From Breznakia sp. PF5-3 (lineage in GTDB: Bacteria > Bacillota_I > Bacilli_A > Erysipelotrichales > Erysipelotrichaceae), in contig NZ_JAQFIQ010000036.1 of assembly GCF_029504745.1 (NCBI RefSeq), forward strand, positions 1-23,231: DNA of 23,231 nt, read 5' to 3'. Of this stretch, positions 1-18,520 are shown one piece after another. How positions within the stretch are numbered: position 1 is the stretch's first letter; every line of letters begins with the position of its first letter. Position numbers and translations under genes: made by a program. The notes under the pieces are model-generated. The model was given only the letters and a program-made list of their open reading frames with translations, searched no databases and was not told the origin of the DNA.

Positions 1-417
1 TTCATTTTTAATACCTGCCTTTATTCCTGTATTGTATCAATCATTCTTACATTATTTTTGTACCATTAGGTATTCTTTGGTTGAATTAAGCGTAAAATAA
101 AAAAATGAACGTTTTTGTGATATTTACCCACTAATATATGCTCAAAGCTTTTTTGATTATAGGTAGAAGCTTTTAAATGAAGGGCAATTTTATTTAGATA
201 AACATGAAGGAGGGTAATAGATTTCAATATAATATTATATTATTAGCTCATGAAAAGGTTAAATGGTGCAGGAGCAGGAACCTGTATTTGACGGGAAAGA
301 AAAGTATTATATTTGTATAAAACACATTAAAAGATGATGAAAAAAAAGATTGTTTTATAGTGTAATTTAATCAAGAGAAAAGACAACGTTTTACAAGTAA
401 TTATAAAAAATAAAAAG

Positions 418-446
418 TTGAGAACTTTTCGCAACTTTCAAACGTC
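418..446 (+). promoter_or_regulatory. ECF-sigma-type promoter of the pilus operon: TTGAGAACTTTTC (-35 block), then CGTC (-10) 17 nt after GAAC
   Basis: GAAC at 422-425, a 17-nt gap, CGTC at 443-446. The 13-mer TTGAGAACTTTTC at 418-430 is identical to 8567-8579, with the same gap and the same CGTC. GAAC(TT)/CGTC is the classical ECF promoter architecture. Confidence 0.6.
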
Positions 447-558
447 ACTGAAAATAGAGGAAGGGAGATTGAATGGTATATTGAAGTATTACATAAATTG
501 GTACTGCGAATGAATGTTTCAATATACTAGAAAGAAAGATGAGGGCGGTGAAAAATGA

Positions 559-3324
559 ATGAAGAAAAAACCAAGTAAATGGCTAGCGAAACTAACATTT
601 ATTCTGTTAGTCACGTTTGTTGTCATTGGACAACTTACCATGAACAAACTTGGAGCGGAAGATAATTCTTCAGATACAAAGACGGAAGATGTTATGAAGG
701 ATGTTGATGAAAAGATATCGTTTAGATCGATACAGCCATTAATGTTTGAAGATGTTCCTATGTATTTGGAGGTGAATGGTGTGGTACAAGAAATCACAAT
801 ATCTCCAGGTTTAGTATCGGACGCAGTAGAAAAATTGACACTAGAGGATGGTGTAAAATTTCAAAGAGCAGTACTTAGAAGGGAAGAAGGTGGAAACACC
901 ACGGAAGTAGATATTATTCGAGTGGGGAAGCTCGATGATGAAATCTATTATTCTCTAGCAAATCAACAGAATACAGGAATTTTATTAAAGGAGAATGAGA
1001 AATTAGTAATTGTGTGTAAGTCAGTATATGGCTTTACATACGAATATGATCCACTAAAGGGGAGTGTGAGTGGACCAGCGACAACATGGAAAGATGATGC
1101 AGTTGATATCCATGTAAAGGCTGAAAAATATCATCATATTAGTAAGATTGAATACATTGATAAAAACAATGTAGTTACTCAGGTATCAATAAGTGATAAT
1201 AAGGATATGACTTTTTCAATACCTGCTAGCGCTTTAAATGGTGATATGAGAGTAAAAGCAGAGTTTCTATCAGATGCACTTTATACAATTACAGAAGCAC
1301 CATCCGATGGAATCCAGCAAGGTGATTTATGTTTAAATGCAACCACAAGTGGTGAGTTCATTCCAAGTGTTACACCAGGGAGTACACAATCGTTTATGTT
1401 GTTTTCACAATCATGGACAGGTGGGGATGAATGGTATTTGAATATGTTAGCAATTAATGGCGAAAGTGTAGAAGTGCCATTGGTTTATGATATTGGGTCA
1501 ACTACCACAACAACACTTAAAAACGGTTCAATTGTAACCATAGAGTTAACAGGTAAAGGTGCGAGCTTGGCTTGGAAGGCTGGCGATAGCAGTAAAAAGC
1601 GGTGCCTTTATGTAATCACGGTTAGTGATATTCAAGAAGATATGGTTTTAACTGGAAACTTTAAGCTTGGTGGAAAGCGTGAAATGATTATTCGTGACAT
1701 GATTGGTATTTCGAAAGTGGGAGCTGCCAAACAAACAGTAGTAAGAAATGCATGGGTAAGTGGAACAGGTTATGATAATCCTGGGGATCACTTCTTCTAC
1801 AACTTACAACCGAATGATGGGGATACTGTTTATGATGCATACTACAAGGAAAGAGATAATGTAGGAGATCCAGCACAAAGTTATAATATTTATTTATATA
1901 CAGTGAAGCCAGGATACAATCCAAATACGGCAACTTATAGAGTTTATTATAATGGTGTGGAAGGAGATTATTCAAAGATTTTTCTAGCTTCTGGTAATGC
2001 TCAAGAGGTGGCAGCCAGTCTGGTAACAAATTATCGGCATTTTGATCCTTTTAAGAAGTTGGGAATCGCTGGTGGAGGAAAAATCAATGGTGATGGTTTC
2101 TTTGTCGAAGCAGCAAGAGAAGGATATACACATGTGTTTGCACTAAAAGAACATCCTGCAAATAATCAAGTTATTGATTTGAAAGCTACACCATATCAAT
2201 ATAATTTAATTTTTGATATGGATGGTGGTACCTATGCTAATACGGATTTAAATTTAGAAAAATACACATTGAATGGAACAACTGCAACGGAAAAGAAAAG
2301 TGATGGTTCACTTGTAACGTATACATTAGAACATGATACGGCAACTGCACATATGCCTGTTGTTGCACCTAAGAAAGAAGATTATTTCTTTAAGGGATGG
2401 AAGCTTTATAAAGATGGTGTAGCAGTATCAGATACGTTATATTCATTAGGTCAATCATTTGAAATTAATGAAGATACAATAGCTTATGCAAAAGGTGATT
2501 TAAAGTATGATGAAGGTCATACATTTACCTTCGTAGCACAATGGAGCAATGTATTAGATAGTACAGATACGGCAGAGTATGATGCATATTTTTATAAAGA
2601 AGATCCATTAAATGGAACTCATGTTCATGATGGTAAAAAGTATACTATCGTCAAAGAGATTAATGATTTTGGAACGGTTGGCGGAACAATCGTGGTATTA
2701 AATGATTTTCATCCAGGAAGTGATTATGAATTGAATAATGATTCAAAAGTTAAAATCGTAGGATTAAAGGATGAAACGGAAAGTGGTTATAAAGCACATA
2801 ATCAAATTATTTATTATTATGATTTAATACCAAATAAACTTACCATTGAAAAAACGGTAAGCGGATCTTATGCAAATAGATCAACAGCGTTTGAAATAGA
2901 AATTCAATTGATAAATCCAGATAAGACGAATTTTAATGGAACAATTGATTATACAGGGAAAACAACACATGCAAACAATCAAGCTTTAGCAAATGGAACA
3001 TTAACATTTATTGATGGAAAGGCATCAATTACTTTAAAGCATGGACAAAGCATTACTTTTGAAACTACTCCTGGAGTGGAATACAAAGTAATAGCAAAAC
3101 CCTCTACAAGGGGATATGAATTTGCATATACAGGAACAGGAACGTGTACAAATGAACACGCGACAGGAACGTTGAGTGATGATCATGAAGTGTTGATTAC
3201 GGGAACAAGAGATTATATCCCAGATATGGGAATTCAAGGTTCACCTTTGGTAGTAATATTCATGGGTGTTGTTGGACTTAGTGGCATCTTAGTTAAGATG
3301 ATATATCGTAAAAGAAAATGTTAG
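559..3324 (+). CDS. Large sortase-substrate surface adhesin, probable pilus tip subunit (Cpa-position gene)
   Basis: 921-codon ORF with an N-terminal signal peptide (MKKKPSKWLAKLTFILLVTFVVIG). Internal Listeria-Bacteroides-type repeat at nt 2194-2547 (YNLIFDMDGG...FFKGWKLY...FVAQW). C-terminal pilin/Cna-B-like domain (TLKHGQSITFETTPGVEYKV). C-terminal sorting signal IPDMG (3217-3231), then a hydrophobic stretch and an RKRKC tail. First gene of the pilus operon. Confidence 0.8.
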   Translation: MKKKPSKWLAKLTFILLVTFVVIGQLTMNKLGAEDNSSDTKTEDVMKDVDEKISFRSIQPLMFEDVPMYLEVNGVVQEITISPGLVSDAVEKLTLEDGVKFQRAVLRREEGGNTTEVDIIRVGKLDDEIYYSLANQQNTGILLKENEKLVIVCKSVYGFTYEYDPLKGSVSGPATTWKDDAVDIHVKAEKYHHISKIEYIDKNNVVTQVSISDNKDMTFSIPASALNGDMRVKAEFLSDALYTITEAPSDGIQQGDLCLNATTSGEFIPSVTPGSTQSFMLFSQSWTGGDEWYLNMLAINGESVEVPLVYDIGSTTTTTLKNGSIVTIELTGKGASLAWKAGDSSKKRCLYVITVSDIQEDMVLTGNFKLGGKREMIIRDMIGISKVGAAKQTVVRNAWVSGTGYDNPGDHFFYNLQPNDGDTVYDAYYKERDNVGDPAQSYNIYLYTVKPGYNPNTATYRVYYNGVEGDYSKIFLASGNAQEVAASLVTNYRHFDPFKKLGIAGGGKINGDGFFVEAAREGYTHVFALKEHPANNQVIDLKATPYQYNLIFDMDGGTYANTDLNLEKYTLNGTTATEKKSDGSLVTYTLEHDTATAHMPVVAPKKEDYFFKGWKLYKDGVAVSDTLYSLGQSFEINEDTIAYAKGDLKYDEGHTFTFVAQWSNVLDSTDTAEYDAYFYKEDPLNGTHVHDGKKYTIVKEINDFGTVGGTIVVLNDFHPGSDYELNNDSKVKIVGLKDETESGYKAHNQIIYYYDLIPNKLTIEKTVSGSYANRSTAFEIEIQLINPDKTNFNGTIDYTGKTTHANNQALANGTLTFIDGKASITLKHGQSITFETTPGVEYKVIAKPSTRGYEFAYTGTGTCTNEHATGTLSDDHEVLITGTRDYIPDMGIQGSPLVVIFMGVVGLSGILVKMIYRKRKC

Positions 3325-3860
3325 CAATTAAAGAAAAAATAGAAAAACAGCGAGATCCAAATAAACAACCTACAGTATTACAAGATATTCTATATTTGTT
3401 TATTAAGATTATTGCAATTATTGGTATTTTTATCTTATTATTTACGCTTATATTTGGGATTCATCGCAATGCAAATGCAGATATGGATCCTGCAATCAAA
3501 GATGGTGATCTGATACTCTATTATCGATTTGATAAAAATTATACAGCTAAGGATTTGGTTATGTATGAGTATGATGACACGACTTATGTATCAAGAGTTG
3601 TTGCTGTAGCAGGAGATCAAGTGGATATCAATGAAGAAGGACTTATCATAAATGGTTCACTTCAACAAGAATACGATATTTATACAGATACTTTACGATA
3701 TGCAACTGATGTTGAATTTCCTTTGGAAGTAAAAACAGGAGAAATCTTTGTATTAGGTGATAATCGAGAGCAAGCAAGCGATAGTAGAATTTTTGGCTCA
3801 ATCAAGATAAAAAATACCTTTGGAAAAGTATTTATGATTATACGAAGAAGAAATTTATAA
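3318..3860 (+). CDS. Signal peptidase I (S26) homologue lacking the Ser/Lys catalytic dyad; SipA/LepA-like pilus assembly factor
   Basis: N-terminal TM helix plus S26 boxes (DPAIKDGDLILY, VLGDNREQASDSRIFG). The nucleophile position is Asp (ANADMDPA versus GDSMxPT, codon 3480-3482). The general-base position is Ser (YVSRVVAVAGD versus YVKRVIGLPGD, codon 3591-3593). The ATG at 3318 overlaps the adhesin stop at 3322-3324. Confidence 0.8.
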   Translation: MLAIKEKIEKQRDPNKQPTVLQDILYLFIKIIAIIGIFILLFTLIFGIHRNANADMDPAIKDGDLILYYRFDKNYTAKDLVMYEYDDTTYVSRVVAVAGDQVDINEEGLIINGSLQQEYDIYTDTLRYATDVEFPLEVKTGEIFVLGDNREQASDSRIFGSIKIKNTFGKVFMIIRRRNL

Positions 3861-3879
3861 AAATATAATGGAGGACAAT

Positions 3880-5019
3880 ATGACAAAATTAAGAAAAGTA
3901 TTATCAATAATGATGGTAAGTATTATGACATTTACACTTATTGCAGTTTCAACAGTGAACACAGCTGCAGCAAGTGATAGCAAGGAAGTAACAATTACAA
4001 AGACTTTATCAATTGCTGATGGTATTACAACACCAAGTGCAAGTTTTACCTTTGCATTTGCAGCAGATACAGCATTTGATGCTGCTACACCTGCGATTGC
4101 AAACAAAAGTGTGAATTTCACAAGTGCAGATGTAAAAGCAGCAAATACAAATGCAATTGAAAAAGAGACAACGAATATTTTCGCTGGAGTAACATATCCA
4201 CATGCAGGAGAGTTCTTTTATACAATTAGTGAAACAGCTGGTACAACAGCAATTGAAAATGGAGAAATGGCATACGATACAAGCAAATATAGAATGCAAG
4301 TAATCGTTGCTGAAGACACAGATGGAACACTTTATATTAGCGCGGTAAATGTTGCTACATTAGATGATCAAAATAACGTTGATCAAAAAGTTGGTTCACA
4401 ACCAAGTGATGATATTACTGGTGGAGAAACATTTAAATTATTTACAAATACCTTTACAAAAAATGGTGGTGCTGGTGTTGATCCTGGTGAAGAATTAGAT
4501 TCAGCATTGACAATCACACATAAAGTAGCTGGAACAGCAGCAGATAAGTCAAAATATTTCACATATAATGTAACATTAACACAATCACCAACGGCAAGAG
4601 CTGCATTATCATATACAGGGAAAGTTGGTAGTACACCTTATACATTTACAACAGGTCAAGCAACAACAGTTACTTTAAAACATGGTGAAACAATTGATTT
4701 TGAGGTACTTCCAGCAGGTACAAAGGTTAGTGTAGTAGCAACTGGTGTGGATACATATACACCATCTTATGAATATATATCAAATGGTGGAGCAAAAGTT
4801 ACACAAGCGGGTTCAAAAGCAACAACTTTAACGGCTTCTGACATATTAGTTGGTGAATATGAGAATACAATTGTATTTACACACACTCGTAATACAGAAG
4901 ATATTCCACCAATGGGTATTGATATTAATAACTTACCATTTATATTGTTTATTTTAGTATCTATGGGAGGATTTGCTTTCTATATTGTTAATAAGAGACG
5001 CACAAGAACACAAGGTTAG
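3880..5019 (+). CDS. Backbone (major) pilin, FctA/T-antigen-like, sortase substrate
   Basis: GGAGGA at 3870-3875 favours the ATG at 3880 over the track start at 3868. Signal peptide MTKLRKVLSIMMVSIMTFTLIAVSTVNTAAA. Pilin-like motifs (YPHAGEFFYTISE, YRMQVIV, TLKHGETIDFEVLPAGTKV). C-terminal IPPMG (4903-4917), then a hydrophobic segment and an NKRRTRTQG tail. Confidence 0.8.
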   Translation: MTKLRKVLSIMMVSIMTFTLIAVSTVNTAAASDSKEVTITKTLSIADGITTPSASFTFAFAADTAFDAATPAIANKSVNFTSADVKAANTNAIEKETTNIFAGVTYPHAGEFFYTISETAGTTAIENGEMAYDTSKYRMQVIVAEDTDGTLYISAVNVATLDDQNNVDQKVGSQPSDDITGGETFKLFTNTFTKNGGAGVDPGEELDSALTITHKVAGTAADKSKYFTYNVTLTQSPTARAALSYTGKVGSTPYTFTTGQATTVTLKHGETIDFEVLPAGTKVSVVATGVDTYTPSYEYISNGGAKVTQAGSKATTLTASDILVGEYENTIVFTHTRNTEDIPPMGIDINNLPFILFILVSMGGFAFYIVNKRRTRTQG

Positions 5020-5032
5020 TTAGAATAAAAAA

Positions 5033-6010
5033 ATGAAACAAAGAAAACAACTTTTCGTTGAAAAGAAGCAATCAAAGCGTTTCATAGAAAGAAAGATCAT
5101 TAAAGGGATACATGGAATTATAAATGCAAGTATATTTGTAGTGTTACTTTTATTGTTTATATATGGTTGTTATGCTTTATGGGATTCAAAGCAAGTAACG
5201 AATGAAGCACAGGCTATACAATATGAAGCATATAAGCCAAGCGAAGAAGATAATTTATCGTTTCAGGAATTACAGACGATAAATGATGAAGTATTTGGGT
5301 GGCTCACTGTTTATGGTACAAGGATTGATTATCCTTTTGTCCAAGCTGAAGACAATAAAAAGTATGTAAATACGGATAGCAAAGGAAAATATTCCATATC
5401 TGGTAGTATTTTCTTAGATTCAAGAAATAAACATGATTTCTCAGATTTTAATTCGATATTATTTGGGCATCATATGGTTGAATCAGCAATGTTTGGTGAT
5501 TTGAGTAATTTCACTGATTCTATGTATTTTAAAGATCGAAAATATGGAAATATTTATTATAGTGGAAAAAATCATGGTATTGAATTCTTTGCATTTTTAG
5601 AAACAGATAGTTATGATAGTGTGATTTTTCAACCAGCAATTATAAACGATGATCAAAGACAAGCAGCATTAGAGTATATTGAGGTGAACGCGCTTCACTA
5701 TCGTGATCTTCATGTTACAACAAAAGATCACATTGTGATATTGAGCACTTGTTCATCTGCATTAACCAATGGTAGATACATTTTGGTGGGACGGATTACC
5801 GACTCAACATATCCAGATTCTTTCAATCGTGCAAAAGATAATTTGTCTGAAAGTAATGTTGGAATATGGAATACATTTCTTCGTTTACCACTATGGGCAA
5901 AATTGGTTTTAGGAATATTACTTTTATGTATCGTATGGATGATCATTGAAAAAAGTAGAAAGGGTAATGGTGATGAAAACAGTTCAGGGAATAAAAAAGA
6001 TACAGTGTAA
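5033..6010 (+). CDS. Class B-type sortase (pilus-polymerising), with an additional C-terminal TM segment
   Basis: N-terminal TM helix. SrtB-like N-terminal block INDEVFGWLTVYGTRIDYPFVQAEDNKKYV. Catalytic His in ILFGHHM, Cys in VILSTCSS, Arg in GRYILVGRI. The gene sits between two pilin genes. Hydrophobic segment LPLWAKLVLGILLLCIVWMII lies near the C-terminus (about 5879-5948). Confidence 0.85.
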   Translation: MKQRKQLFVEKKQSKRFIERKIIKGIHGIINASIFVVLLLLFIYGCYALWDSKQVTNEAQAIQYEAYKPSEEDNLSFQELQTINDEVFGWLTVYGTRIDYPFVQAEDNKKYVNTDSKGKYSISGSIFLDSRNKHDFSDFNSILFGHHMVESAMFGDLSNFTDSMYFKDRKYGNIYYSGKNHGIEFFAFLETDSYDSVIFQPAIINDDQRQAALEYIEVNALHYRDLHVTTKDHIVILSTCSSALTNGRYILVGRITDSTYPDSFNRAKDNLSESNVGIWNTFLRLPLWAKLVLGILLLCIVWMIIEKSRKGNGDENSSGNKKDTV

Positions 6011-6614
6011 ATTTATTGTTTTAGTCATAGTGTTTTTGATATTACCTTTTGGTATCAAGGTGAATGCAGCAGAAAACGGTGTGGATGTAAATCTTCCTGT
6101 TGAGCAAATTTTTGAGGTTGAAAATGAAAATACAATTTCAAATGAGTTTAAGTATTGTCTGTTTGCAGTGACGGACAATGCTCCAATGCCAAAAAATAGT
6201 GGTCAAAAAAATTATATATTTTATTTGAAGGGAAACCAGAGGATAGATATAGAAGCGATTAATTATACACAAAGTGGAGTGTATGAATATGATCTTTATC
6301 AAGTCATAGAGGAAGAAAAAGGGGGCTATGTCTATGATAAAACAGTATATCGAATTATTGTTCATATTTCATACGATAGTCATAATGATTTCATTAGTGA
6401 GGTGACAATCGCTAATGAGAAGGGCTTAAAAGTGGATCGTGCAACATTTACTAATCAAGTGAGAATTAAAAATGCTGCAAGTGTTGCTAATACCATGTCG
6501 AAGCCAAGTACAGGAGATAATACGGATATATCTGCATGGTATGTCTTAATGTCGATTTCAAGTGTATTTATCTTTTTTGGAATATGGGAAAAAAGAAAAA
6601 AAGCGAAGATATGA
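5973..6614 (+). CDS. Small basal/minor pilin (FctB-position gene) with a KPSTG sorting signal
   Basis: The SD-like GAAAGGG at 5958-5964 fits the ATG at 5973; the track start at 5946 is a TTG inside the sortase gene. Signal peptide ends ...FGIKVNA/AENG. Streptococcal-pilin-like motifs (FKYCLFAVTDNAPMPKN, GVYEYDLYQV, YDKTVYRIIVHI). C-terminal KPSTGD (6501-6515), then a hydrophobic stretch and a KRKKAKI tail. Confidence 0.75.
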   Translation: MKTVQGIKKIQCKFIVLVIVFLILPFGIKVNAAENGVDVNLPVEQIFEVENENTISNEFKYCLFAVTDNAPMPKNSGQKNYIFYLKGNQRIDIEAINYTQSGVYEYDLYQVIEEEKGGYVYDKTVYRIIVHISYDSHNDFISEVTIANEKGLKVDRATFTNQVRIKNAASVANTMSKPSTGDNTDISAWYVLMSISSVFIFFGIWEKRKKAKI

Positions 6615-6653
6615 TGTAATCTTTGAAATTATTTGAAGGAATATGAAACTTAG

Positions 6654-6738
6654 TATCTAATGTGTGAGAAACATCTTTCATACATTAGATATAAGATGGG
6701 CTGGTGTATATTTATTGCACCAACGCATCTTATATCTA
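6654..6738 (+). terminator. Two long overlapping stem-loops downstream of the pilus operon (possible terminator or RNA stability element, no clear U-tract)
   Basis: TATCTAATGT (6654-6663) pairs with ACATTAGATA (6682-6691), with further inner pairs. TAGATATAAGATG (6686-6698) pairs with CATCTTATATCTA (6726-6738). The two hairpins share TAGATA at 6686-6691. Confidence 0.35.
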
Positions 6739-7051
6739 CAAAAACTAAGAAAAATAATGAAGTTTTTTGAAGGTTTCTTGTAATATGGGCTTTTTTATGC
6801 GATATTAATATTAAGAAATGTATATAAAAGCAGCATAATAAAAAAATATAATTAGTTAAATTGCATAATTGGCTTGGGAAGGCACACTATAATTATGCGG
6901 AGGGCAACTTTATCTTTTATATTTTTTTGTTATCTGCTGTTTCACTATTCTTGTTTTTTTAGGGTAGTGAGCGAGCTTTTTGATTTTAGTATCCCGTATG
7001 ACTAAGCCCTCTTATGAAACCATAATTTATAATTTATCAGGAGGGCGAAAT

Positions 7052-8365
7052 ATGAGTGGATTAAAAGCGGAAGAAATTCAAAAATTTATTGATGGTGATG
7101 ATACGGTATATCCTAAGATTTTTGCTGTGTATAAAAACAAAGTTAATTATATGGCCATCAAAATTCTTCGTAATGAAGCAGATTGTGAAGAAGTAGTGCA
7201 AAATACGTTTATTAAAGTATTCGAAAAAAGAAAAGATTTAAAAGATGCGAGTGCATTTAATACATGGATCTATCGAATTGCATACAATGCTAGTTTAGAT
7301 TTATACAGAAAGAATAAACGTAATTTAAGTAGTGATAATCATGATGTAGAAGAATTATCAGATTCTACAAGAGATACAAATTATGAAGTTAAAAAACATA
7401 CGATTTTGGAGTCTGTTCGTTTACAAATCGAAAGTTTACCAAAAGAGCTAAAAGAAATCTGTGATCTATGGTTTCTTTCTGGATGTAGCTTGGAAGAAAT
7501 TTCAGGTATTTTAAATGTGCCAAAAGGTACGGTTAAAAGCCGTTTACATCGTGCACGAAAACAACTACGTTCTGATTTGCAGAGGCAAGAGATAACCCCC
7601 AGGACGTTTTTAACGTTGTCGTTTCCAACCTTTGCATACCGGATATATGTTTCTATGATTGAAACACATAAGATTACAGCAGCATCAGGTGCTAGAATCA
7701 TGCGAAAGATTGAGGAAGCTACCAACGTCTCTGTAGATGCACTGGCATCTGCAATTGGAAATAATTCACTTGGAAGAGCAAGTATTGGAACTTTTGTATT
7801 ACTTTCATCTTTGCTACTTGGAGGTTTGGGAGCAGCAGGCGTGATGAATCCTACAGATACATCGGCAAAAAATATTACAGAAGTGATGTATCTAGATGAG
7901 ATAACGAATAAGAATTTACAAATTGGGATAATCTTTGATGGGACGATTAAGGCAAAGGATGTCAAAGTAACTCTTAATGGCAAGAAGATAAAGCTTGATG
8001 TTGTTGACAAAGATCGGTGTACTTTTATAGCTAGTGAAAATGGGCAGTATGTAATTAAATATAAGAATTCCAATGAAGAAATTGAAATAAAGAATATTGA
8101 TAAATCAGCACCTGTTTTATTAGGGATATCGGCAGATGATGGATTAATTAGTTTAAGTGCAGAAGATAATCATTCAGGGATTGACTTTGAAAAATCTTAT
8201 GTAGAAGCAGGCGATAAAAAAATATCATTAGTAAAGATTGATGAGAAGAATTTCTATTTAAGTGATGCATTAGAAAAAGATGCGACAGTGAGGTTTTATG
8301 ATATTGCAGGGAATTATGAAACTTACAAAATAAATGTTGAAAAAAAGATTAGTAGTACAGAATAG
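7052..8365 (+). CDS. ECF (group 4) sigma-70 factor fused to a TM helix and an extracytoplasmic Ig-like domain (single-chain sigma/anti-sigma-like sensor)
   Basis: GGAGGG at 7040-7045 sits 6 nt before the ATG at 7052; the track start at 6980 is a TTG with no SD. Region 2: EEVVQNTFIKVFEK...FNTWIYRIAYNASLDLYRKNKR. Region 4.2: LPKELKEICDLWFLSGCSLEEISGILNVPKGTVKSRLHRARKQLR. TM helix IGTFVLLSSLLLGGLGAAGVM (7784-7846). The C-terminal ~170 aa is beta-rich and ends with a RFYDIAGNYETYKINV motif typical of bacterial Ig-like domains. Confidence 0.85.
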   Translation: MSGLKAEEIQKFIDGDDTVYPKIFAVYKNKVNYMAIKILRNEADCEEVVQNTFIKVFEKRKDLKDASAFNTWIYRIAYNASLDLYRKNKRNLSSDNHDVEELSDSTRDTNYEVKKHTILESVRLQIESLPKELKEICDLWFLSGCSLEEISGILNVPKGTVKSRLHRARKQLRSDLQRQEITPRTFLTLSFPTFAYRIYVSMIETHKITAASGARIMRKIEEATNVSVDALASAIGNNSLGRASIGTFVLLSSLLLGGLGAAGVMNPTDTSAKNITEVMYLDEITNKNLQIGIIFDGTIKAKDVKVTLNGKKIKLDVVDKDRCTFIASENGQYVIKYKNSNEEIEIKNIDKSAPVLLGISADDGLISLSAEDNHSGIDFEKSYVEAGDKKISLVKIDEKNFYLSDALEKDATVRFYDIAGNYETYKINVEKKISSTE

Positions 8366-8416
8366 CAATATAAAAATTTATAATATATACAAAATGAGGG
8401 CGGCAAAAAATTTATA

Positions 8417-8458
8417 AAAAAGGATTTTCGCTTTTGATGATGATCCTTTTTATTTTTG
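8417..8458 (+). terminator. Rho-independent terminator after the sigma gene
   Basis: AAAAAGGAT (8417-8425) pairs with ATCCTTTTT (8443-8451), followed by ATTTTTGG. The loop is rather long at 17 nt. Confidence 0.5.
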
Positions 8459-8566
8459 GAATTATATTACCTTTCTAGTCTTAAACGCTTTATTTATGCA
8501 GTAATATTGAGTTTTTATGAAAGTATAAATAGGTGGAAAATAATAAGATAAGACGAATTTATTTTT

Positions 8567-8595
8567 TTGAGAACTTTTCATAAAATGCGGTCGTC
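8567..8595 (+). promoter_or_regulatory. ECF-sigma-type promoter of the cohesin-dockerin operon (second copy of TTGAGAACTTTTC-N-CGTC)
   Basis: GAAC at 8571-8574, a 17-nt gap, CGTC at 8592-8595. The 13-mer at 8567-8579 is identical to 418-430. It lies downstream of the sigma-gene terminator and 26 nt upstream of the ATG at 8621. Confidence 0.6.
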
Positions 8596-8620
8596 CCTAA
8601 AATAGAGAGGAGAATTGGAT

Positions 8621-11600
8621 ATGAAAAAAGTTATATCTAGCTTACGTAAATTTGGTTTAGGTTCTTTAGCTTTTTGCATGGCACTTGGAATGGCATTAAC
8701 GAATATTAATGCAATTGATAGTAGTTCTGAGATAAGTGTAAAAAATGAAATTACTTATAACGATGATAAAGCGCAAGCGACAATTCATTTAGATGTGGCA
8801 CAAGAAAACGAAAATGTTGAAGTGAGTAAAGTGTTAGATCCAAATGAAAATGAAATGAGTCTTGATGACTTAAACTATGTAGTCGATAACAACGCTACTT
8901 ATACATTTAAAGTAGAGTATCGTATGGAGGATAGTCAAGACCTTCAGACATATGACTATGAAGTTATTGTAAATGACATTATAGACGCAACAAGCAAGGG
9001 CGAGATATCAAGAGGGGCGCTAAGAAGTGATATTAGCACAAGAGCTAATATTCTTGGAGACAATGAGTATATTGTGTATACTCTTGATGAATTAAAAACA
9101 TATGCTGAAATACCAAATGCAACAGTTTATTTTGGAGCGGATATTATTTGGGCATCTGGTACATCTTCAGATAAGAGTATTTCTATTGCAGAAGGTGTAA
9201 CGATTAATGGAACTGATCCTAGAACAGGTATTCGTCATAAATATAGATACGATACAGGTAGTTCAAAATGGGAAGGTTTCCAACTTCGTCAAGATGATAG
9301 AAAAGTAACATTCAGTGATATTGATATTGAGGGAACTGGAGGATATGGTGTAGCAAATGGACATGATTATCGAAGAGTAGTAGTAACATTCCATAATGTG
9401 AATTTCAAAGGTTCAAATGCTCAAGGATTCTATGCTCCAAAAGGTGGAAAACTGATTATGTCAGGAGATACTACTTGGACACAAAAAGGAACAAATCCAT
9501 ATTCAGAAGAGTTTGCAGAAATTACAAACTTAGAATTTGCAGAAGGTGCAAATGTGACAATTGATCATGAATCAAGATTAGGAAAGAGTTACAATTCATT
9601 CTTCTATGCTTCTTACAATGATGATAAATATAAACATATTGACATTACAGTAGGAAAGAACGCAAAGGCAACAATCAAATCAAACAAAGGAATTTTTGCT
9701 GCAAATGCAAATGGTGGAACACACTCAATTACAGTAAATGAAGGTGCAAATTTTACGATTGATCAAACAAACAATACAGACAATGAATGTCAGTTAGCAA
9801 AACCTGGTAACAATTCACCAATTTACATTAGAGTAAAAGATGAAGGTACATTCAATTTCTATTCCAACACAAAAGCAGGGTATGGAATGTTGAATACACA
9901 ACAAGAAAGTGCAATCAATGTTGATGCAGGTGGATCAATCCGTGTTATTAACTATGGTAAAGGTGGAGCTGTCGGTGCAAACAGTACAGCAACATATATC
10001 AACCTTGATACACCTAAATATGCAGAATTTACAAGTCAATCAACATTTCCATTAGAAATGATGACAAGGGGTGGCGGAAATGTAACAGCAAGCAATGCTG
10101 TTGTATTAGCTAGTGCAGATAACAAAGCATACTATAACCTAGGTTATGTACATAACATTGCAATGAACCATAAAAGTAGTAGTAACACTTTAGTTGGTGT
10201 TAATCCTACAACTTGGACTGGTGCATATACATATACAGCAATGCAAAATGGACTTAAGAGTTTAGTGTTTAGAGGGGTTTCGATTGAAATTCAAGAACCT
10301 GTAAAAGATACTGATTCAATTGTGAATGTGAAAACAGAACCAAATGCGAAAGTAACAATTACAGGGACATATGAAGATGGAACACCTTGTGAATTAACAA
10401 AAGTAGCAGATGAAAACGGGGATGTTCAATTTGATTTAGGAGATAAAACACTAAAAGGTGGATCTGAATTATCTTCTAAAGCAACTGTAAATAACGATAT
10501 TGAACTTATTGGAAATACAGTAATTGTAGAAAAAACTCCAATTGAAGAAAAAGTAACGCTTACTGCAGAAGATGCATTCCTTCACCGTGATGATGCGAAA
10601 GCATTAGCTAATGTTGATGGATTAGCATACTACAACAAAGCAAAAGCAGTATTATGGAATAACACAGAAGATACACCTAGTGCATCATGTGCAGACTACG
10701 ACAAGATTAAAGCAGGTGTAATCGGTGTTTACGATGTGACATATTCTTATACGTTACATGAAGAAACAATTACAACAACAGCTAAAATTATTGTTCACAA
10801 TGGAGTACCAACACCAGATGGTGAATATGTATTGACAGCTTCAGATGGATTGATTTCTGAGAGTGAAGCGAAAGCTTTATCTGGAAAAGAGTATAGTTCA
10901 CTTCGTTCATACAACAAAGCTACAGCTTTCAATAAGAAAGGTGAGCAATTTGAGGTAAGTACATTTGTACAACCAGGAGACTGGATGAGTATTACAGATG
11001 GAAAAGTTGGATCTTATAGAGTTTTCTACTCATTTGGTGAAGGCGATAACTTAGTTCAAAAAATAGTTAAGATAACAGTATATGAAGATGGTGGTATCTT
11101 ATCACCAGATGAAGATTTTGTTCTTCATGCATTTGATGCTTGTATCTTAAAAAGTGAAGCAGAAGGATTAAATGTAAAAGAAGATTTAATTCCATATAAC
11201 CGAGGAAAAGTAACATTGGCAAGTGGAGATATTTTAGCGCCTAATGTGAAAGCAGATGATTTCGCAACGATTAAAAGTGGAACACTTGGAAACTATGATG
11301 TGACTTATAGTTATGGAAGTGAAAATAATGCAGTTAGCAAAGACGTAATCGTTAGTGTTAAGAAGAATGGTGGAATTGTTTCACCAGAAAGAGATTTTGT
11401 TCTTTATGCGGAAGATGGAGAAATCTTACAAACCGAAGCAGAAGGTATGGAATCAGAAACAGACGTATTAGATATAGTGAATGGATATGTTGAATTTGTA
11501 GATGGAACTACAGTAGCACCAGATATTTCAGTGGAAGACTTCGATAAAGTACAAGCTGGAAAAGATGGTGATTATAAAGTTACTGTTAGCTACGATGGTG

Positions 11601-11881
11601 TTGAAAAAGAAGTAGAATTGACACTAATTCAAGAATATGAAGCAAGGTATTTATTTGATTATAATAATGATGGAAAAGTAAATAGTGTAGATTATGTATA
11701 TTTCAATGATTTATTTAATAATCCAGATACTGTAACAGAACAAGATTTATTACTTTCTGATGCAAATGGAGATGGATATATAGATATGGTTGATTTAGGT
11801 ATGGTTCACTATTATTTAAACAATCCACAAGCAAAATTAAAAGAAATTAGAATACCAATTGATTTACTTAAAAAGAAATAA
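8621..11881 (+). CDS. Secreted dockerin-bearing adhesin-like protein: N-terminal Ig-like region, beta-helix-like central region, 4 Ig-like repeats, C-terminal type-I dockerin
   Basis: GAGAGGAG at 8604-8611 favours the ATG at 8621; the track start at 8615 is a TTG only 3 nt after the SD. Signal peptide ...GMALTNINA. Recurrent beta-helix-like rungs: EGANVTIDHES, GKNAKATIKSNKG, NEGANFTIDQTNN, DEGTFNFYSN, DAGGSIRVINYG. Repeats and dockerin are listed as separate features. Confidence 0.85.
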   Translation: MKKVISSLRKFGLGSLAFCMALGMALTNINAIDSSSEISVKNEITYNDDKAQATIHLDVAQENENVEVSKVLDPNENEMSLDDLNYVVDNNATYTFKVEYRMEDSQDLQTYDYEVIVNDIIDATSKGEISRGALRSDISTRANILGDNEYIVYTLDELKTYAEIPNATVYFGADIIWASGTSSDKSISIAEGVTINGTDPRTGIRHKYRYDTGSSKWEGFQLRQDDRKVTFSDIDIEGTGGYGVANGHDYRRVVVTFHNVNFKGSNAQGFYAPKGGKLIMSGDTTWTQKGTNPYSEEFAEITNLEFAEGANVTIDHESRLGKSYNSFFYASYNDDKYKHIDITVGKNAKATIKSNKGIFAANANGGTHSITVNEGANFTIDQTNNTDNECQLAKPGNNSPIYIRVKDEGTFNFYSNTKAGYGMLNTQQESAINVDAGGSIRVINYGKGGAVGANSTATYINLDTPKYAEFTSQSTFPLEMMTRGGGNVTASNAVVLASADNKAYYNLGYVHNIAMNHKSSSNTLVGVNPTTWTGAYTYTAMQNGLKSLVFRGVSIEIQEPVKDTDSIVNVKTEPNAKVTITGTYEDGTPCELTKVADENGDVQFDLGDKTLKGGSELSSKATVNNDIELIGNTVIVEKTPIEEKVTLTAEDAFLHRDDAKALANVDGLAYYNKAKAVLWNNTEDTPSASCADYDKIKAGVIGVYDVTYSYTLHEETITTTAKIIVHNGVPTPDGEYVLTASDGLISESEAKALSGKEYSSLRSYNKATAFNKKGEQFEVSTFVQPGDWMSITDGKVGSYRVFYSFGEGDNLVQKIVKITVYEDGGILSPDEDFVLHAFDACILKSEAEGLNVKEDLIPYNRGKVTLASGDILAPNVKADDFATIKSGTLGNYDVTYSYGSENNAVSKDVIVSVKKNGGIVSPERDFVLYAEDGEILQTEAEGMESETDVLDIVNGYVEFVDGTTVAPDISVEDFDKVQAGKDGDYKVTVSYDGVEKEVELTLIQEYEARYLFDYNNDGKVNSVDYVYFNDLFNNPDTVTEQDLLLSDANGDGYIDMVDLGMVHYYLNNPQAKLKEIRIPIDLLKKK
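10553..11644 (+). repeat. Four tandem ~91-aa Ig-like protein repeats (coding, diverged at DNA level)
   Basis: Each unit runs [LV]xAxDxxIxxxxAKAL...YN.A.V...G......V...D[FW]..I..G..G.Y.VTYSYG.....K.V.[IV].V. The signatures are GVIGVYDVTYSY, GKVGSYRVFYSF, GTLGNYDVTYSY and GKDGDYKVTVSY. Confidence 0.8.
11651..11824 (+). other. Type-I dockerin module (two Ca-binding loop/helix segments)
   Basis: LFDYNNDGKVNSVDYVYFNDLF ... LLSDANGDGYIDMVDLGMVHYYLNN. Both halves fit the DxNxDGxhxxxD dockerin/EF-hand-like loop followed by a helix. Confidence 0.8.
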
Positions 11882-11924
11882 TGAAGAAAGGAGATTGTTT
11901 ATTTTATAAATAAACAAACACGAT

Positions 11925-13451
11925 ATGAAATTAAAATTTATTAAAAAAGGATTTAAGAAAATCGCTGCTCTAGGGTTAGTGATGGCTGTGTTGATTCCTA
12001 TTGTTGGGAATGTTACTTCTTCAATAACAGCAGCTCAAACACCTTCATTTGACGTAGAGCCTACGATTACAATTACAAGAAATGATGGTGGTGGACTATA
12101 TTATGGAACACACGAACAAGAAGAAAGTTATGTAGATAATGGAAAACAATATTACCGTGATGGAGATATTATTCAAGTAGAAGTATCTTTACCGCAAGGA
12201 CATGGGTCATCAGCAGTATTTAATGTTGTGAAATATGATAATGAAAAATTACAATTATTATCAACAATGGATCATATTAAATATTCAATGGCTTCAAATT
12301 ATATGAATGCAGGATGGGATCCAGCAGTTGGATACTATGAAGGAGAGACAAACCAAATCTCAACAATATCAACAGGACCTGCAAATGAATTTGAAGGTGG
12401 AAATATTGCTGTAATGTATTTTAAAGTTAAACCTGGAGTTGAAAGTACAAAAGGAACAGATATTACATTCGAATTTCCAAACTTTAATAGTGCAACAAGA
12501 ATTGAAGGGGAAAGAATGCCTGTTAATAACCATAAAGGTTTTATAGCAGGAGATGAATCAACATATGAATATCACCCTGAATCAATTACAATTCAAGCGA
12601 AAACACCTTCTGCTCCTGAACCAGCAGTAAAACCTACATTGGAATTAACTGCTAATACAGTAACAGTTTATGAAGGAGATATTGTAAACCCTAAAGATTA
12701 CATAAAAAAAGCAAGCTGTACAAGTGATGCAAATGTTAATAAAGATAGTGTTGTAATTACTGGTGGAACTGATGAAACAGGAAAACATCAACCTGTAGCA
12801 GGAAACTATGAATTTACATATAAAGTAACAAATGCATCAAATGAAACAACAGAAAAAACATTGAAATTAAATGTTTTAGAAAGAACATACACTGTAAAAT
12901 CAGTAGAAACAGCTGGTCAAGGATTGAATATTCCTGCTGGAACAACAGATGCTGAATTCGAAGAAATTCTTGAAGGTCTTTTAGGTAAAGAATTTGTTGT
13001 TAATGTAGAAGGAAATGATGGATCTAAGTTTAAAGTTAAAGGAACTGTTTTCGGTGGAGAAACTGATGAATACGAAATTGATGGAAATGATGTTTTAACA
13101 ACACAAACATTTAATATGAAATTAGATTTATTATTGCCAGCAGTAGTATATAACGAAAATGGTGAAAGAGAAATCGTTTCATTACTTGGAAGAGCTGGTT
13201 TTGCTAGTTTAATCGATGATGGAACAGCAGAAGCAGTAATTAAAATTAGAGTTGGTGCAGGTTCAACAACACCAGGAAATGATTCTACAGGATCAAATAA
13301 TGGATCTACAGGTCATGCATCAATTGCTGCAGGTAATTCTGGAGCAGGAACAGATACAGGAGATACTACAAACACAGCAGGATTTATGACATTATTGGCA
13401 TTATCTGGACTTGTATTGGTAGGAACTAAATTAAGAAAAACATATCGCTAA
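11925..13451 (+). CDS. Cell-surface anchoring cohesin protein: signal peptide, cohesin-like module, Ig-like domain(s), Ser/Thr/Gly-rich linker, C-terminal sorting-signal-like tail
   Basis: Signal peptide ...NVTSSITAAQ. Cohesin-like module at 12039-12599. Ig-like domain ending AGNYEFTYKVTNASNETTEKTLKLNV. C-terminus GTDTGDTTNTAGFMTLLALSGLVLVGTKLRKTYR, i.e. xxDTGD, a hydrophobic stretch and a basic tail. No good SD before the ATG at 11925. Confidence 0.8.
   Translation: MKLKFIKKGFKKIAALGLVMAVLIPIVGNVTSSITAAQTPSFDVEPTITITRNDGGGLYYGTHEQEESYVDNGKQYYRDGDIIQVEVSLPQGHGSSAVFNVVKYDNEKLQLLSTMDHIKYSMASNYMNAGWDPAVGYYEGETNQISTISTGPANEFEGGNIAVMYFKVKPGVESTKGTDITFEFPNFNSATRIEGERMPVNNHKGFIAGDESTYEYHPESITIQAKTPSAPEPAVKPTLELTANTVTVYEGDIVNPKDYIKKASCTSDANVNKDSVVITGGTDETGKHQPVAGNYEFTYKVTNASNETTEKTLKLNVLERTYTVKSVETAGQGLNIPAGTTDAEFEEILEGLLGKEFVVNVEGNDGSKFKVKGTVFGGETDEYEIDGNDVLTTQTFNMKLDLLLPAVVYNENGEREIVSLLGRAGFASLIDDGTAEAVIKIRVGAGSTTPGNDSTGSNNGSTGHASIAAGNSGAGTDTGDTTNTAGFMTLLALSGLVLVGTKLRKTYR
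12039..12599 (+). other. Cohesin-like module A
   Basis: GDIIQVEVSLPQGHGSSAVFNVVKYDNEKLQLLS and GGNIAVMYFKVKPGVESTKGTDITFEFP match the cohesin pattern (GDxVxVxVxL ... F.h.YDp..Lehhs ... G.hA.h.FKV...G...I.F). Paralogous to modules B and C. Confidence 0.65.
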
Positions 13452-13486
13452 TTTATAGCAGAAAGAAAAGCATTTGAAAGTGGTGA

Positions 13487-13513
13487 GAAAAGGAAGTCTG
13501 GACACTCCTTTTC
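13487..13513 (+). other. Intercistronic stem-loop (GAAAAGGA / TCCTTTTC), possibly a partial terminator or mRNA-processing/stability element
   Basis: A perfect 8-bp stem (13487-13494 with 13506-13513) and an 11-nt loop, followed by CATTGCTTTTCG, which is only a weak U-tract. Located between the stop at 13451 and the ATG at 13539. Confidence 0.35.
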
Positions 13514-13538
13514 CATTGCTTTTCGAGAAAGGACATTT

Positions 13539-16500
13539 ATGAAAAAGATTATCATGAAAAGTCTTGTTCTTCTGCTAGCAATTACAACTATATTACCAAT
13601 GAGTGGTATTACGGTTGCAGCAGCGGAAGGAATAAAGACAGATATTACCATTACACGTAATAACGGAAATGGTGCTTATGGGGAACATACGCATCCATCA
13701 TACGTTGAAGATGGTGTTCAATATTATCGTGAAGGCGATATTATTGAATTGGATATTGCATTGCCTGCAAATCATGGGGCATCAGAACTTTGGAACGTAG
13801 TAAAGTATGATCCAACACAAGTAGCAGTTGTATCAACAAAGCTAAATGTTCAAAGTACGCTTGGTGATAATTATCGGGCAAAGGGTTATGAAGCTAATAC
13901 AAATTTAGCTTATCAAGGAACACAGGGATTAATATCAACTACGATTGTGCGTACATTCTATGGAAATGATGCACCTGATTTTGATACAGCTGGAGGAACA
14001 ACAGCTAAAATTTATTTTAGAGTTCTTAATGATGTGGAAACAGTAGAAGGAACAGAAATTACATTTGAATTTCCAATTTTCCAAGCAATCAGTAGAACTA
14101 GTATTACCGATTATGAATTTATACACGAAGGATTTGATGCGAATCGTTATGCGGAAACAAGAACTGTAAGTTTAGAATCACAAACGATTATTGCGAAAAA
14201 ACCAACGGTTGATTTTATTGCAGAGGATGGATTCATTACACGTAGTCAAGCACAAGCAATTGGTGAAAGTGCAGATTTAAAACCTTATAACTTTGTTAGT
14301 GCTACAGCAAGTGATGGACAAGAAGTGGCAGTAAAAGCAACAACAAGTAGTTTAGATACAATTAAGGCAGGAACATTGGGAACATATGATGTTACTTATT
14401 CATATACATTTGAAGGAACACCAATGTCAAAAACAGTAAAACTTACAGTTGTTGAAAACGACGTAGTTATTTCTGAAGATAGAACGGTAGCTTTAAGAGC
14501 GGATAGTGTTATCTTGACACAAACACAAGCAAAAGCCTTATCTGCAAAAGAAGCATTGCTTCCATTAAATAATGTATTTGTATACTTATCAAATGGAACA
14601 ACAGCAACAGCAAATGTTGATGTACCAGAGTTTGATAAGATCAAAGCAGGTACAATTGGTACATATAATGCAACATATTCTTATGGAATAGATAAAAGTT
14701 TTGCATCAAAAACAGTAAATGTAGTTGTTGTAAAAGATGGATCTGACATAAGCGATAATAAAAAAGTTTCCTTATATGCAAAAGATGGTTTTATTAGAGA
14801 GTCACAAGCAAGAGCATTGTCACTACGTTCAGCCGTAGCACCATATAACAGTGCTGTAGTAACATTAGCGGATGGATCAACTACAACTCCAACAACAGAA
14901 ATTGAAGCAAATGCTTGGAATAAGATGAGAGCTGGAACATTAGGAACATACAATGTATATTATCACCATGGAACAGGTGATAGTGAAGTTGAAATGAATG
15001 TGAAAGCTACGGTTATTTCAGATGATGCAGTTGTTTCAAAAGATGAAACAGTTAGTTTAGTAGCGGATGATGTTGATATGTATCAAGAAGATGCAAAAGC
15101 GCTTGGTAAAGTGGATGATTTAATTGATTACGCAAATGCTGAAGTAACACTATCAGATGGTACAAAAGTAGCACCTAGTGTAGAAACAGATGATTTTGAT
15201 AGTATCAAAGCTGGAATCATTGGTGAATATGAAGTTACATTTAAATATGGTGAAGGTGATAGTGCTGTTGAAAAGACAGTAACAATTACAATAAAAGAAG
15301 ATTTAAGACATTTAATCTCAGCTACAGATAACTTTATTACTCAAAGTAAAGCACAAGAATTAACTTCAAAAGAAAGTTTACGTGCAGTGAATTCAGTTAG
15401 TGTAACAGACTATAATGGTGTTGACCAAGATGCAGTTGTAACAACAAGTGACTTTAATACAATTAAAGCAGGAACTTTGGGAAGCTACATAATTACTTAT
15501 AGTTATGGTACAGGAACAAAAGAAGTTTCAGTTACTGCAAAAGTAAATGTTATTCCTGATGATTCTATTGTTGATGGTGATGTAAGTTTATATGCAAGAG
15601 ATAAAGCGATTACAGTAACACAAGCAAAAGCATTGAATACGAAAGAAGACCTAATTCCATATAATGAAGCATCTGTAAGATTGCTTGATGGAACTACACC
15701 AGCACCAAGTGTTGCAGTTTCTGTAGGCGATTGGTCATTGATAAACAGTGGTAAAGAAGGTTCTTATAATGTTACTTATAGTTATGGAACGGTTTCAAAG
15801 ACAGTAAAGATTACAGTTGTAAAAGATGGCTCTGAAGAGTCTGAAGACAAAACAGCAACATTATATGCGAAAAATGCTTTTATAACCGTATCAGATGCAA
15901 AAAAAGTTAGCAATAAGACGCAATTGATTCCATACAACAAAGCAGAAGTAGTATTGGCGAGTGGTGATAAAAAAGTGCCAGATGTGACGATATCAAATGA
16001 TGATTTATTAGCAATTAGTGCAGGAACAATTGGTGGCTATAACGTACTTTATTCATACGGTAGTGGAAAACAACAAGTACAAAAAATGGTAAAAATAGTT
16101 GTAATTGCAGATGATCCGATAATTTCAGAAGATGAAAGTGTTGCGTTGAGTGCAAATGATGAAGAAATTGATGATGCAGCTGCTAAGAAATTAACAAGTA
16201 GAAACGAATTGATTGATATTAGTAATGCAGTGGTTACTTTCGATGATGGAACAACACAAGCACCTACATTAGCGGTTGCTGATGAAGATTGGGATGCAAT
16301 ACGTTCAGGGAAATTAGGTACATATTCATTAACATATTCTTATGGTACATTAGGAAATAAAGATTATGTTACAAAAACAGTAAGTTTGACAGTAGTGAAA
16401 CTTACAGAAGACCGTACTTTATTTGATTACAACAGAGATAATATAATTAATAGTGTGGATTACATGTATTTCCATGAGTTATTCAATAATCCTCAATTTG

Positions 16501-16634: not shown

Positions 16635-16661
16635 AACATTTTTAAAGAAAGGGCGATTCAT

Positions 16662-17882: not shown

Positions 17883-17883
17883 T

Positions 17884-18063
17884 ATGGCTACATTATATTT
17901 AATAATATCAATTATCATATTTATATGTACTTGTTTCTTTTGTTTTATATACTTACGAAGAAGAAATGCAATGCGTCGTGAAGCATTAGCGATTTATGAA
18001 GAAGTGCAAAGACATCAATGTATAAAATCATCTAGTTCAAAACCATTGGAAGAACGTGTATGA
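17884..18063 (+). CDS. Small (59 aa) single-pass membrane protein, absent from the supplied ORF track
   Basis: GGAGG at 17873-17877 sits 6 nt before the ATG at 17884, which follows the upstream stop (17880-17882) by 1 nt. My translation is MATLYLIISIIIFICTCFFCFIYLRRRNAMRREALAIYEEVQRHQCIKSSSSKPLEERV. The TGA at 18061-18063 overlaps the next ATG at 18060 (ATGA). Confidence 0.6.
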   Translation: MATLYLIISIIIFICTCFFCFIYLRRRNAMRREALAIYEEVQRHQCIKSSSSKPLEERV

Positions 18064-18512: not shown

Positions 18513-18520
18513 TGATGTAT

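Follow-up and report, generated by a model that had tools for sequence, protein, structure and literature searches.

Two ECF-type promoter motifs, before a pilus operon and a cohesin-dockerin operon, probably answer to a membrane-tethered sigma factor in Breznakia sp. PF5-3

The stretch of Breznakia sp. PF5-3 DNA analysed here (23,231 nt, hereafter the window) carries, in this order, an FCT-type sortase pilus operon, the gene of a membrane-tethered sigma factor of the extracytoplasmic function (ECF) group, and an operon of surface proteins with dockerin and cohesin-like domains. Before the first gene of each operon, and on the coding strand, lies a predicted ECF-type promoter, named P1 for the pilus operon and P2 for the cohesin-dockerin operon. 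The sigma gene, which is the only one in the window as an earlier note on this DNA had stated, is placed between the two. The coordinates of these and of the remaining features are collected in Table 1. Relatives of the sigma factor were searched with a word-indexed protein search, which returned few full-length ones, and their loci (labelled L) were retrieved for comparison. The support for the regulatory reading developed below is computational throughout.

Table 1. Features of the window and of the loci compared with it (positions are those of the window unless a locus is named; TM, transmembrane; AF2, AlphaFold2)
Feature	Position	Strand	Remarks
P1, predicted ECF-type promoter	418-449	+	extended -35 TTGAGAAC, GAAC 422-425, T-tract 426-429, 17-nt spacer, -10 CGTCACT 443-449
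FCT-type sortase pilus operon	559-6614	+	Pfam, NCBIfam
Tip-adhesin-like pilin	559-3324	+	
SipA-like inactive S26 peptidase	3318-3860	+	
FctA backbone pilin	3868-5019	+	FctA 1.4e-10
Class B sortase	5033-6010	+	TIGR03064 192.9 bits vs cut-off 153.75
Minor pilin	5946-6614	+	
Hairpin between pilus operon and sigma leader	6686-6738	+	-30.5 kcal/mol, z -7.4; no U-tract on either strand
Sigma leader	6773-7051	+	6773-6849 homologous to L003 leader (blastn)
Membrane-tethered ECF sigma, 437 aa	7052-8365	+	domain matches, hydropathy, AF2
Sigma protein, sigma2 and sigma4	residues 1-180		
Sigma protein, helical linker	residues 181-242		
Sigma protein, TM helix	residues about 243-266		
Sigma protein, two Ig-like extracytoplasmic domains	residues about 275-430		
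Terminator-like hairpin and U-run after sigma gene	8417-8458	+	weak fold energy, z -0.86; absent from terminator scan list
P2, predicted ECF-type promoter	8567-8598	+	TTGAGAAC, GAAC 8571-8574, T-tract, 17-nt spacer, -10 CGTCCCT 8592-8598
Cohesin-dockerin surface-protein operon	8621-18546	+	
Dockerin protein, 1086 aa	8621-11881	+	
Cohesin-like protein, 508 aa	11925-13451	+	TGD sorting-like signal
Cohesin-like, Big_3 repeats and dockerin, 1031 aa	13539-16634	+	
Membrane-anchored cohesin-like protein	16662-17882	+	
59-aa open reading frame	17884-18063	+	one hydrophobic (TM) helix; overlaps lipoprotein gene start by 4 nt; probably the fifth gene of the P2 operon
Lipoprotein	18060-18512	+	
Terminator	18521-18546	+	
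Pa of L003	411 nt 5' of the L003 sigma ATG		TTGAGAACTTTTG-N12-CGTCACT
Pb of L003	25 nt 5' of the first-dockerin-gene ortholog		TTGCGAACTTTTG-N12-CGTCACT
Paralog module, same genome as the window	L001 9373-21302		GCA_029504775.1, contig JAQFIR010000007

The earlier note had pointed to a 13-mer, TTGAGAACTTTTC, repeated without change on the + strand at 418-430 and 8567-8579, with GAAC followed in both places by 17 nt and CGTC (443-446 and 8592-8595), and this description is exact. A third copy had not been seen by eye, and a search of the window at zero or one mismatch finds none; the statement that the motif occurs exactly twice stands for the window, to which all statements on site uniqueness made here apply. 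No extra copies are present in the intra-operon gaps 11881-11925, 13451-13539, and 17882-18060. The -10 element of P1 ends 112 nt 5' of the ATG of the pilus gene (559), and that of P2 ends 25 nt 5' of the ATG of the dockerin gene (8621). Transcription would be expected to start near 452-455 at P1 and near 8601-8604 at P2, in the latter case just 5' of the Shine-Dalgarno (SD) sequence AGAGAGGAG. Downstream of both sites, the hexamer ATAGAG and a stretch resembling a ribosome-binding site (RBS) are also shared.

The promoters of Bacillus subtilis sigmaW, sigmaX, sigmaM, and sigmaV have been defined experimentally by AAC at -35, CGT(C) at -10, a gap of 16-17 nt, and a stimulatory T-tract that adjoins the -35 element on its 3' side (PMC5758882), and P1 and P2 are alike in all these respects. 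Given that ECF promoters use the AAC of the -35 element together with an adjacent T-tract (PMC5758882), the 13-mer TTGAGAACTTTTC can be read as GAAC plus TTTT. The ECF promoter shape proposed in the earlier note therefore agrees with the B. subtilis consensus, and the assignment to the local sigma passes the comparative test by which ECF target promoters are usually assigned (PMC7826278), as the motif is retained at orthologous sites, varies together with the sigma clade, and in relatives also precedes the sigma gene. The same note saw no obvious sigma-A promoter near either operon, and no match of at least 10/12 was found near P1 or P2; a weak sigma-A-like match (TTTTCA-17-TAAAAT, 9/12) overlaps P2, and sigma-A-like matches are rarer in the window than in shuffles (78 vs 101). 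A scan of the window with Rfam gave no known RNA family.

It is clear that the identity of TTGAGAACTTTTC at two positions proves little when taken alone, given that repeated 13-mers are common in this AT-rich window, where 86 distinct 13-mers recur, compared with approximately 23 in shuffles. The pattern GAGAAC-N17-CGTC at up to two mismatches is found four times in the window, with 5.3 expected, the two extra matches both having two mismatches and lying inside coding sequence. It is the bipartite composite motif in its context that is beyond chance. The non-redundant sigma-homolog loci, 103 kb in all, contain nine copies of GAAC-N16/17-CGTC, compared with 1.36 +/- 1.1 in 200 shuffles counted on both strands (maximum of 5), and every one of these occurrences (9/9) is intergenic and on the strand of the gene. 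A position weight matrix (PWM) built from sites outside the window only, and then applied to the window, gave 23.3 bits for P1 and 19.3 bits for P2, which are ranks 1 and 2 in the window; the 95th percentile of the shuffles was 17.2 bits and their maximum 20.6. An internal site at 7788, with a good -35 and a poor -10 element, reached 15.9-16.5 bits, at or just below the shuffle 95th percentile, and was rejected. The 17-base consensus TTGNGAACTTTT-N13-CGTCNCT has 39 scattered matches in 596 Gb of genome contigs, none of them from Breznakia, the source genome of the window being outside this collection. The one match that was inspected, from Erysipelotrichaceae (L146), lies inside a coding region and was set aside as a chance match.

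The locus L003 belongs to another organism and its sigma factor is 63% identical to that of the window. Synteny between the two was found by blastn for the leader, the sigma gene, P2, and the dockerin gene, and by flanking sequence P1 corresponds to Pa and P2 to Pb. At all four sites TTGnGAACTTTT-N13-CGTCnCT is invariant, while the spacers are identical at only 3/12 positions for P1 versus Pa and 7/12 for P2 versus Pb, indicating a bipartite footprint. In L003, Pa and the sigma gene are separated by the leader alone, without an intervening gene. Just 5' of the -35 element of P2, a 15-mer, AGATAAGACGAATTT, is located at 8546-8560, with a second copy at 2919-2933 inside the tip-pilin gene, and the part ACGAATTTA of this 15-mer is also retained 5' of the -35 element of Pb (L003, about 5524-5535). 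It may be an UP-like element or the site of a second regulator.

Across the loci compared, the motif co-varies with the sigma clade. In the paralog clade (L001, L004, L009) it reads GGAACCTTTT-N12/13-CGTC and lies 29-43 nt 5' of the sigma ATG, and it recurs before a cohesin-like gene in L001 and L004. The form GGAACTTTTTT..GTCTAA is found in L005, before a cohesin-like gene only, and GAAC-N17-CGAC in L198, before the sigma gene only. Two copies each are present of AGTTCAAACT..ATATCTAAC in L006 (B. blatticola), of GAAACC..GTGCGTCTTACT in L194, and of TGAACC..CnCTAA in L197. For most of the related loci, one copy is located before the sigma gene and a second one before a surface-protein gene nearby, and the link to cohesin-dockerin genes is present in every relative with downstream DNA to inspect. 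The L001 module is on another contig of the Breznakia genome and consists, in this order, of an active S26 peptidase, GGAACCTTTT-N12-CGTC, a fused sigma (P0004, 45% identical to the window sigma, P0001), a 1671-aa protein, the same motif, a cohesin-like 510-aa protein, and a 1031-aa protein. Given this module, the Breznakia genome has two or more switches of this kind, and their promoter motifs are very much alike.

The sigma protein of the window, 100% identical to a database protein of Breznakia sp. PF5-3, is a bona fide ECF (group 4) factor. Pfam matches were obtained for Sigma70_r2 (2e-12), Sigma70_r4_2 (1e-11), and Sigma70_ECF (6e-7), with no r3 or r1 match, and TIGR02937 (sigma70-ECF) gave 93.7 bits against a cut-off of 42.9. 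The best PDB match of the sigma domain is SigW (5wuq, 3e-19). The NCBIfam SigW model also matches (1e-32), but its 113 bits compare with an equivalog cut-off of 209, and no equivalog cut-off was reached. The membrane-bound nature of the protein put forward in the earlier note is in line with one predicted TM helix, seen as a hydropathy peak at residues 243-266 and as an AF2 helix at 246-263 that is followed by two beta-sandwich domains. For the linker, AF2 predicts three helices at 183-238 with pLDDT <52. No separate anti-sigma gene adjoins the sigma gene, and a C-terminal TM extension is fused to the sigma factor instead.

When a profile of the outer part was compared with 1.84 billion representatives, 613 proteins were found. 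Among the best 150 of these 613, approximately 70, each standing for a cluster at 50% identity, are 415-465 aa long and carry the outer domain at the C-terminus; an N-terminus with ECF sigma2 and sigma4 was confirmed in 8/8 full-length members checked, and a ninth, truncated match kept sigma4 only. By these matches the fused architecture is a sizeable family, the members of which bear only generic sigma factor names in the source annotations. Giant surface proteins in which Ig-like repeats are numerous account for most of the other matches to the outer part. The sigma ectodomain was not found in the neighbouring surface proteins of the sigma loci, where the profile matched sigma proteins alone. 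The proteins P0121-P0131 are surface proteins of 1500-5000 aa in which repeats matching the two Ig-like domains of the sigma factor (Pfam BiPBP_C-, DUF7743-like) occur up to 31 times.

In L001 (9373-9933), L004 (8624-9196), L005 (1342-1890), and L009 (1086-1625), the gene immediately 5' of the sigma gene encodes an S26 signal peptidase that retains both catalytic residues. In the sigmaV pathway, signal peptidase cleaves RsiV, and by analogy the adjoining S26 peptidases could be dedicated enzymes, acting either as a site-1 protease or in processing. A broader proposal, which we regard as possible rather than probable, is that the window sigma belongs to a large, unnamed, and unstudied family of one-protein transmembrane sigma factors (ECF, linker, TM helix, and two Ig-like ectodomains) of Erysipelotrichaceae/Coprobacillaceae-type gut bacteria. 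Most members would have their own, usually duplicated, promoter variant, and each would be dedicated to a neighbouring surface-organelle operon, be it a cohesin-dockerin assembly, a pilus, or a giant adhesin. Activation in this family may make use of the adjoining S26 signal peptidase, in analogy to site-1 cleavage in RsiV/sigmaV.

The operon behind P1 had been described in the earlier note as a pilus operon, which is correct, and it can be further assigned to the FCT type, including a SipA-like peptidase besides its class B sortase. In the S26 homolog of this operon DMDPA and VSRV replace the catalytic SMxPT and VKRV and, given that the catalytic Ser and Lys are replaced, as they are in pilus chaperones of the SipA type, the protein is SipA-like and inactive. 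The FCT pili of Streptococcus pyogenes have the same components: a backbone of FctA type, a pilin that is ancillary or forms the tip, a dead signal peptidase like SipA, and a sortase of the class B type. They differ in their control, which in S. pyogenes is exerted by the stand-alone regulators RofA/Nra and MsmR and here would be exerted by an ECF sigma. The literature search gave no report of a sortase-dependent pilus under ECF sigma control. Both the minor pilin (6530-6614; KPSTGDNTD, TM, KRKKAKI) and the 508-aa cohesin-like protein (13350-13451; DTGDTTN, TM, KLRKTYR) end in a TGD motif, a hydrophobic segment, and a tail of basic residues. The TGD motif is conserved in the homologs of L001, L004, and L005, and this C-terminus looks like a non-LPXTG sortase sorting signal.

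For the operon behind P2, the dockerin part of the description given in the earlier note is well founded, given that both the 1086-aa and the 1031-aa protein end in a Dockerin_1 match (34.4 and 32.8 bits), above the Pfam cut-off of 22.9. The cohesin part is suggested by fold and, weakly, by Pfam. A module of approximately 190 aa is present in three copies in the operon, one of which (1/3) matches Pfam Cohesin at E=0.006 with 17.1 bits, under the cut-off of 24.1. With the AF2 model of this module (pLDDT 59, pTM 0.64), 19 of the 22 PDB matches found by Foldseek at E<=0.001 were cohesins (E about 1e-4, TM-score 0.35-0.6). A word-indexed homolog search with the cohesin-like domain gave no matches, and a PDB sequence search with the 508-aa protein gave nothing useful. 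It is reasonable, without being proven, to label the P2 unit a cohesin-dockerin operon. Pfam detected no glycoside hydrolase domains in the dockerin proteins and, for this reason, the complex encoded by this operon may not be cellulolytic.

The transcription of the sigma gene itself has to be considered with its surroundings. Given that P1 is orthologous to the promoter of the L003 sigma gene, the window sigma is probably autoregulated through read-through of the pilus operon, and the sigma gene probably belongs to the P1 transcription unit; the pilus operon would now separate the sigma gene from its ancestral promoter. The hairpin at 6686-6738, from its lack of a U-tract, does not resemble a canonical terminator; it could serve in processing or stability, or terminate part of the transcripts. 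In the leader, the sigma SD, GGAGGG (7040-7045), is predicted to pair with GCCCUC (7006-7018 with 7033-7046), and the same pairing is predicted in L003 (about 4088-4140). The modelled pairing in both leaders suggests translational damping of the sigma factor. GGAGGGC is apparently the usual SD in these genomes. At its 3' end, the sigma gene is followed by a terminator-like hairpin, weak in the window and stronger in L003 (z -3.8), and for this reason P2 is needed for the genes that follow.

We consider it likely that RNA polymerase recognises P1 and P2 as promoters when it carries the ECF sigma of gene 7052-8365. The design recurs in related genomes, which makes a genuine, self-contained switch for cell-surface structures very probable. 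In such a switch, the tethered sigma would be inactive until an outside cue led to proteolytic release of its soluble part, as in IutY, the ECF52 hybrids, and RsiV/sigmaV. The released sigma would initiate transcription 6-9 nt after each CGTC. From P1 it would drive the pilus operon and, by read-through of the hairpin that has no U-tract, its own gene, giving rise to positive feedback, while from P2, located beyond the terminator-like hairpin 3' of the sigma gene, it would drive the cohesin-dockerin operon. The earlier note had proposed that one sigma switches on both the pilus and the cohesin-dockerin complex. The conserved motif at orthologous sites, its co-variation with the clade, and the copy before the sigma gene in relatives speak for this proposal, whereas the "one sigma" part of it cannot be asserted, given that the same genome has a paralogous sigma with a near-identical motif.

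Several points weigh against this reading as a whole. The count of sites covers the window. The link to a pilus is seen in the Breznakia sp. PF5-3 genome only, and L003 has no pilus operon at the equivalent position. No motif is found in the sigma's own 438-nt upstream region (6615-7051), so that autoregulation hinges on read-through past a hairpin of considerable stability. Pfam finds no FecR-like or zinc-binding ZAS anti-sigma domain in residues 180-437 at E up to 10, and the AF2 confidence for the linker is also low. The sigma4 recognition helix, KGTVKSRL, is identical in the window sigma and the paralog, the region 2 residues are very similar, and a PWM made from the paralog clade only also places P1 and P2 above all other sites of the window (17.4 and 14.1 bits). 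These last observations also favour the possibility that P1 and P2 are genuine ECF-type promoters that are read mainly by another ECF sigma, most obviously the paralog P0004, with the local sigma as a passenger or secondary reader, which would be a hierarchy or cross-talk and not a closed regulon. Indeed, the paralog motif GGAACCTTTT-N12-CGTC differs from P1 and P2 only at the positions flanking GAAC, and in B. subtilis the CGTC -10 elements and T-tracts widen recognition over several ECF sigmas (PMC5758882). Nonetheless, the difference between AGAACT and GGAACC is constant within each clade across species, which suggests selection for separate specificities; L003 retains the AGAAC/CGAAC type beside the orthologous sigma, and every paralog already possesses sites next to the genes of its own locus. 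For these reasons a leading role of the paralog is considered unlikely, though it is the alternative to be taken most seriously.

Another explanation for the conserved blocks is that they are the operator of a DNA-binding regulator or the remnant of a duplicated segment, with transcription occurring from weak sigma-A promoters. The shared ATAGAG and RBS-like stretch would fit a duplication of the whole 5' region, and the sigma-A-like match over P2 could provide a start. However, bipartite conservation with a fixed gap of 16-17 nt and spacer identity at chance level fits a sigma factor, unlike a dimeric operator, and neither inverted nor direct symmetry is seen in the sites. The pair is older than the separation from L003, so that a recent duplication does not account for it, and the scarcity of sigma-A-like matches relative to shuffles, together with a motif that changes with the sigma clade, makes this explanation improbable. 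As for a chance coincidence of two AT-rich 13-mers, the excess of repeated 13-mers in the window would lend it some credit, but the composite motif, its strand and position, and its conservation across species are far beyond chance, and the scattered matches of the 17-base consensus in so large a collection, with the inspected one in coding sequence, point the same way. This coincidence is effectively refuted.

With the local sigma as the probable reader, the system can be compared with known ones. It resembles the B. subtilis ECF regulons in the promoter copy found before the sigma gene in relatives of the window sigma and in a sigma domain that is closest to SigW. It differs from them in having no separate anti-sigma gene and in its targets, which are surface organelles and not envelope-stress genes; unlike in the autoregulated B. 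subtilis regulons, the sigma-proximal copy in the window is parted from the sigma gene by the 6-kb pilus operon. Sigma factors fused to a membrane sensor are known, namely IutY of Pseudomonas putida (ECF243), SCO4117 (ECF52), ECF48, and ECF53, for which release by proteolysis is expected (PMC8999054). Hybrids of the IutY and ECF52 type likewise extend at the C-terminus through a TM helix into an extracytoplasmic domain; they differ in belonging to Proteobacteria and Actinobacteria and in their FecR-like or zinc-finger anti-sigma domains, whereas the window protein is from Erysipelotrichaceae, has none that is detectable, and carries two Ig-like outer domains. In Clostridium thermocellum, the pairs SigmaI/RsgI and sigma24C/Rsi24C, each a sigma with a transmembrane sensor, control cohesin and dockerin genes, with several paralogous modules per genome (PMC6056542, PMC4711584). 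The likeness to SigmaI/RsgI is functional only, as SigmaI is not an ECF factor, the sensor is a separate protein with carbohydrate-binding modules, and the promoter consensus is another one. No RsgI-like gene was found in the window by Pfam, and the literature search gave no paper describing a membrane-tethered ECF sigma that governs pilus and cohesin-dockerin assembly.

An ECF sigma with cognate promoters beside its gene is textbook knowledge, and the finding extends this principle without overturning it. What would be new is the membrane-tethered form governing both pilus and cohesin-dockerin assembly. If the proposed pairing is true, the window holds a compact and tractable switch of one tethered sigma, two promoters, and two surface structures in little-studied Firmicutes of insect and animal guts; the host, Breznakia, is an insect-gut member of the Erysipelotrichaceae. 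It would also be, as far as the literature search shows, the first case of ECF sigma control of a sortase-assembled pilus. As an ECF counterpart to the clostridial sigmaI/RsgI, it would suggest that the coupling of transmembrane sigma signalling to surface-complex genes arose more than once. The clade-specific paired promoters could be used, together with the self-contained sigma, as parts for orthogonal expression, and the family offers a natural series for the co-evolution of promoter specificity and sigma factors.

A metagenome scan with the extended pattern including ATAGAG gave 25 matches, all in unrelated contigs that are mostly GC-rich, and no further relatives of the sigma factor. Nine metagenome contigs (L169-L171, L175, L177, L186, L189, L191, and L193; GC 0.52-0.58) share the near-identical sequence GCCGAACTTTTC(C/G/A/T)GAGGGGCGTGACGTCTCTAA(A/G)ATAGAGGCCATCAT, which resembles an unrelated conserved ECF-type promoter of GC-rich bacteria. 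In the window, beyond the terminator of the cohesin-dockerin operon, a perfect sigma-A promoter (TTGACA-16-TATAAT, 18938-18965) lies 5' of a gene for a PFL-like glycyl-radical enzyme (19004-21355). This gene is followed by that of its activating enzyme and by a gene of the transaldolase/FSA family, and the unit is unrelated to the sigma module.

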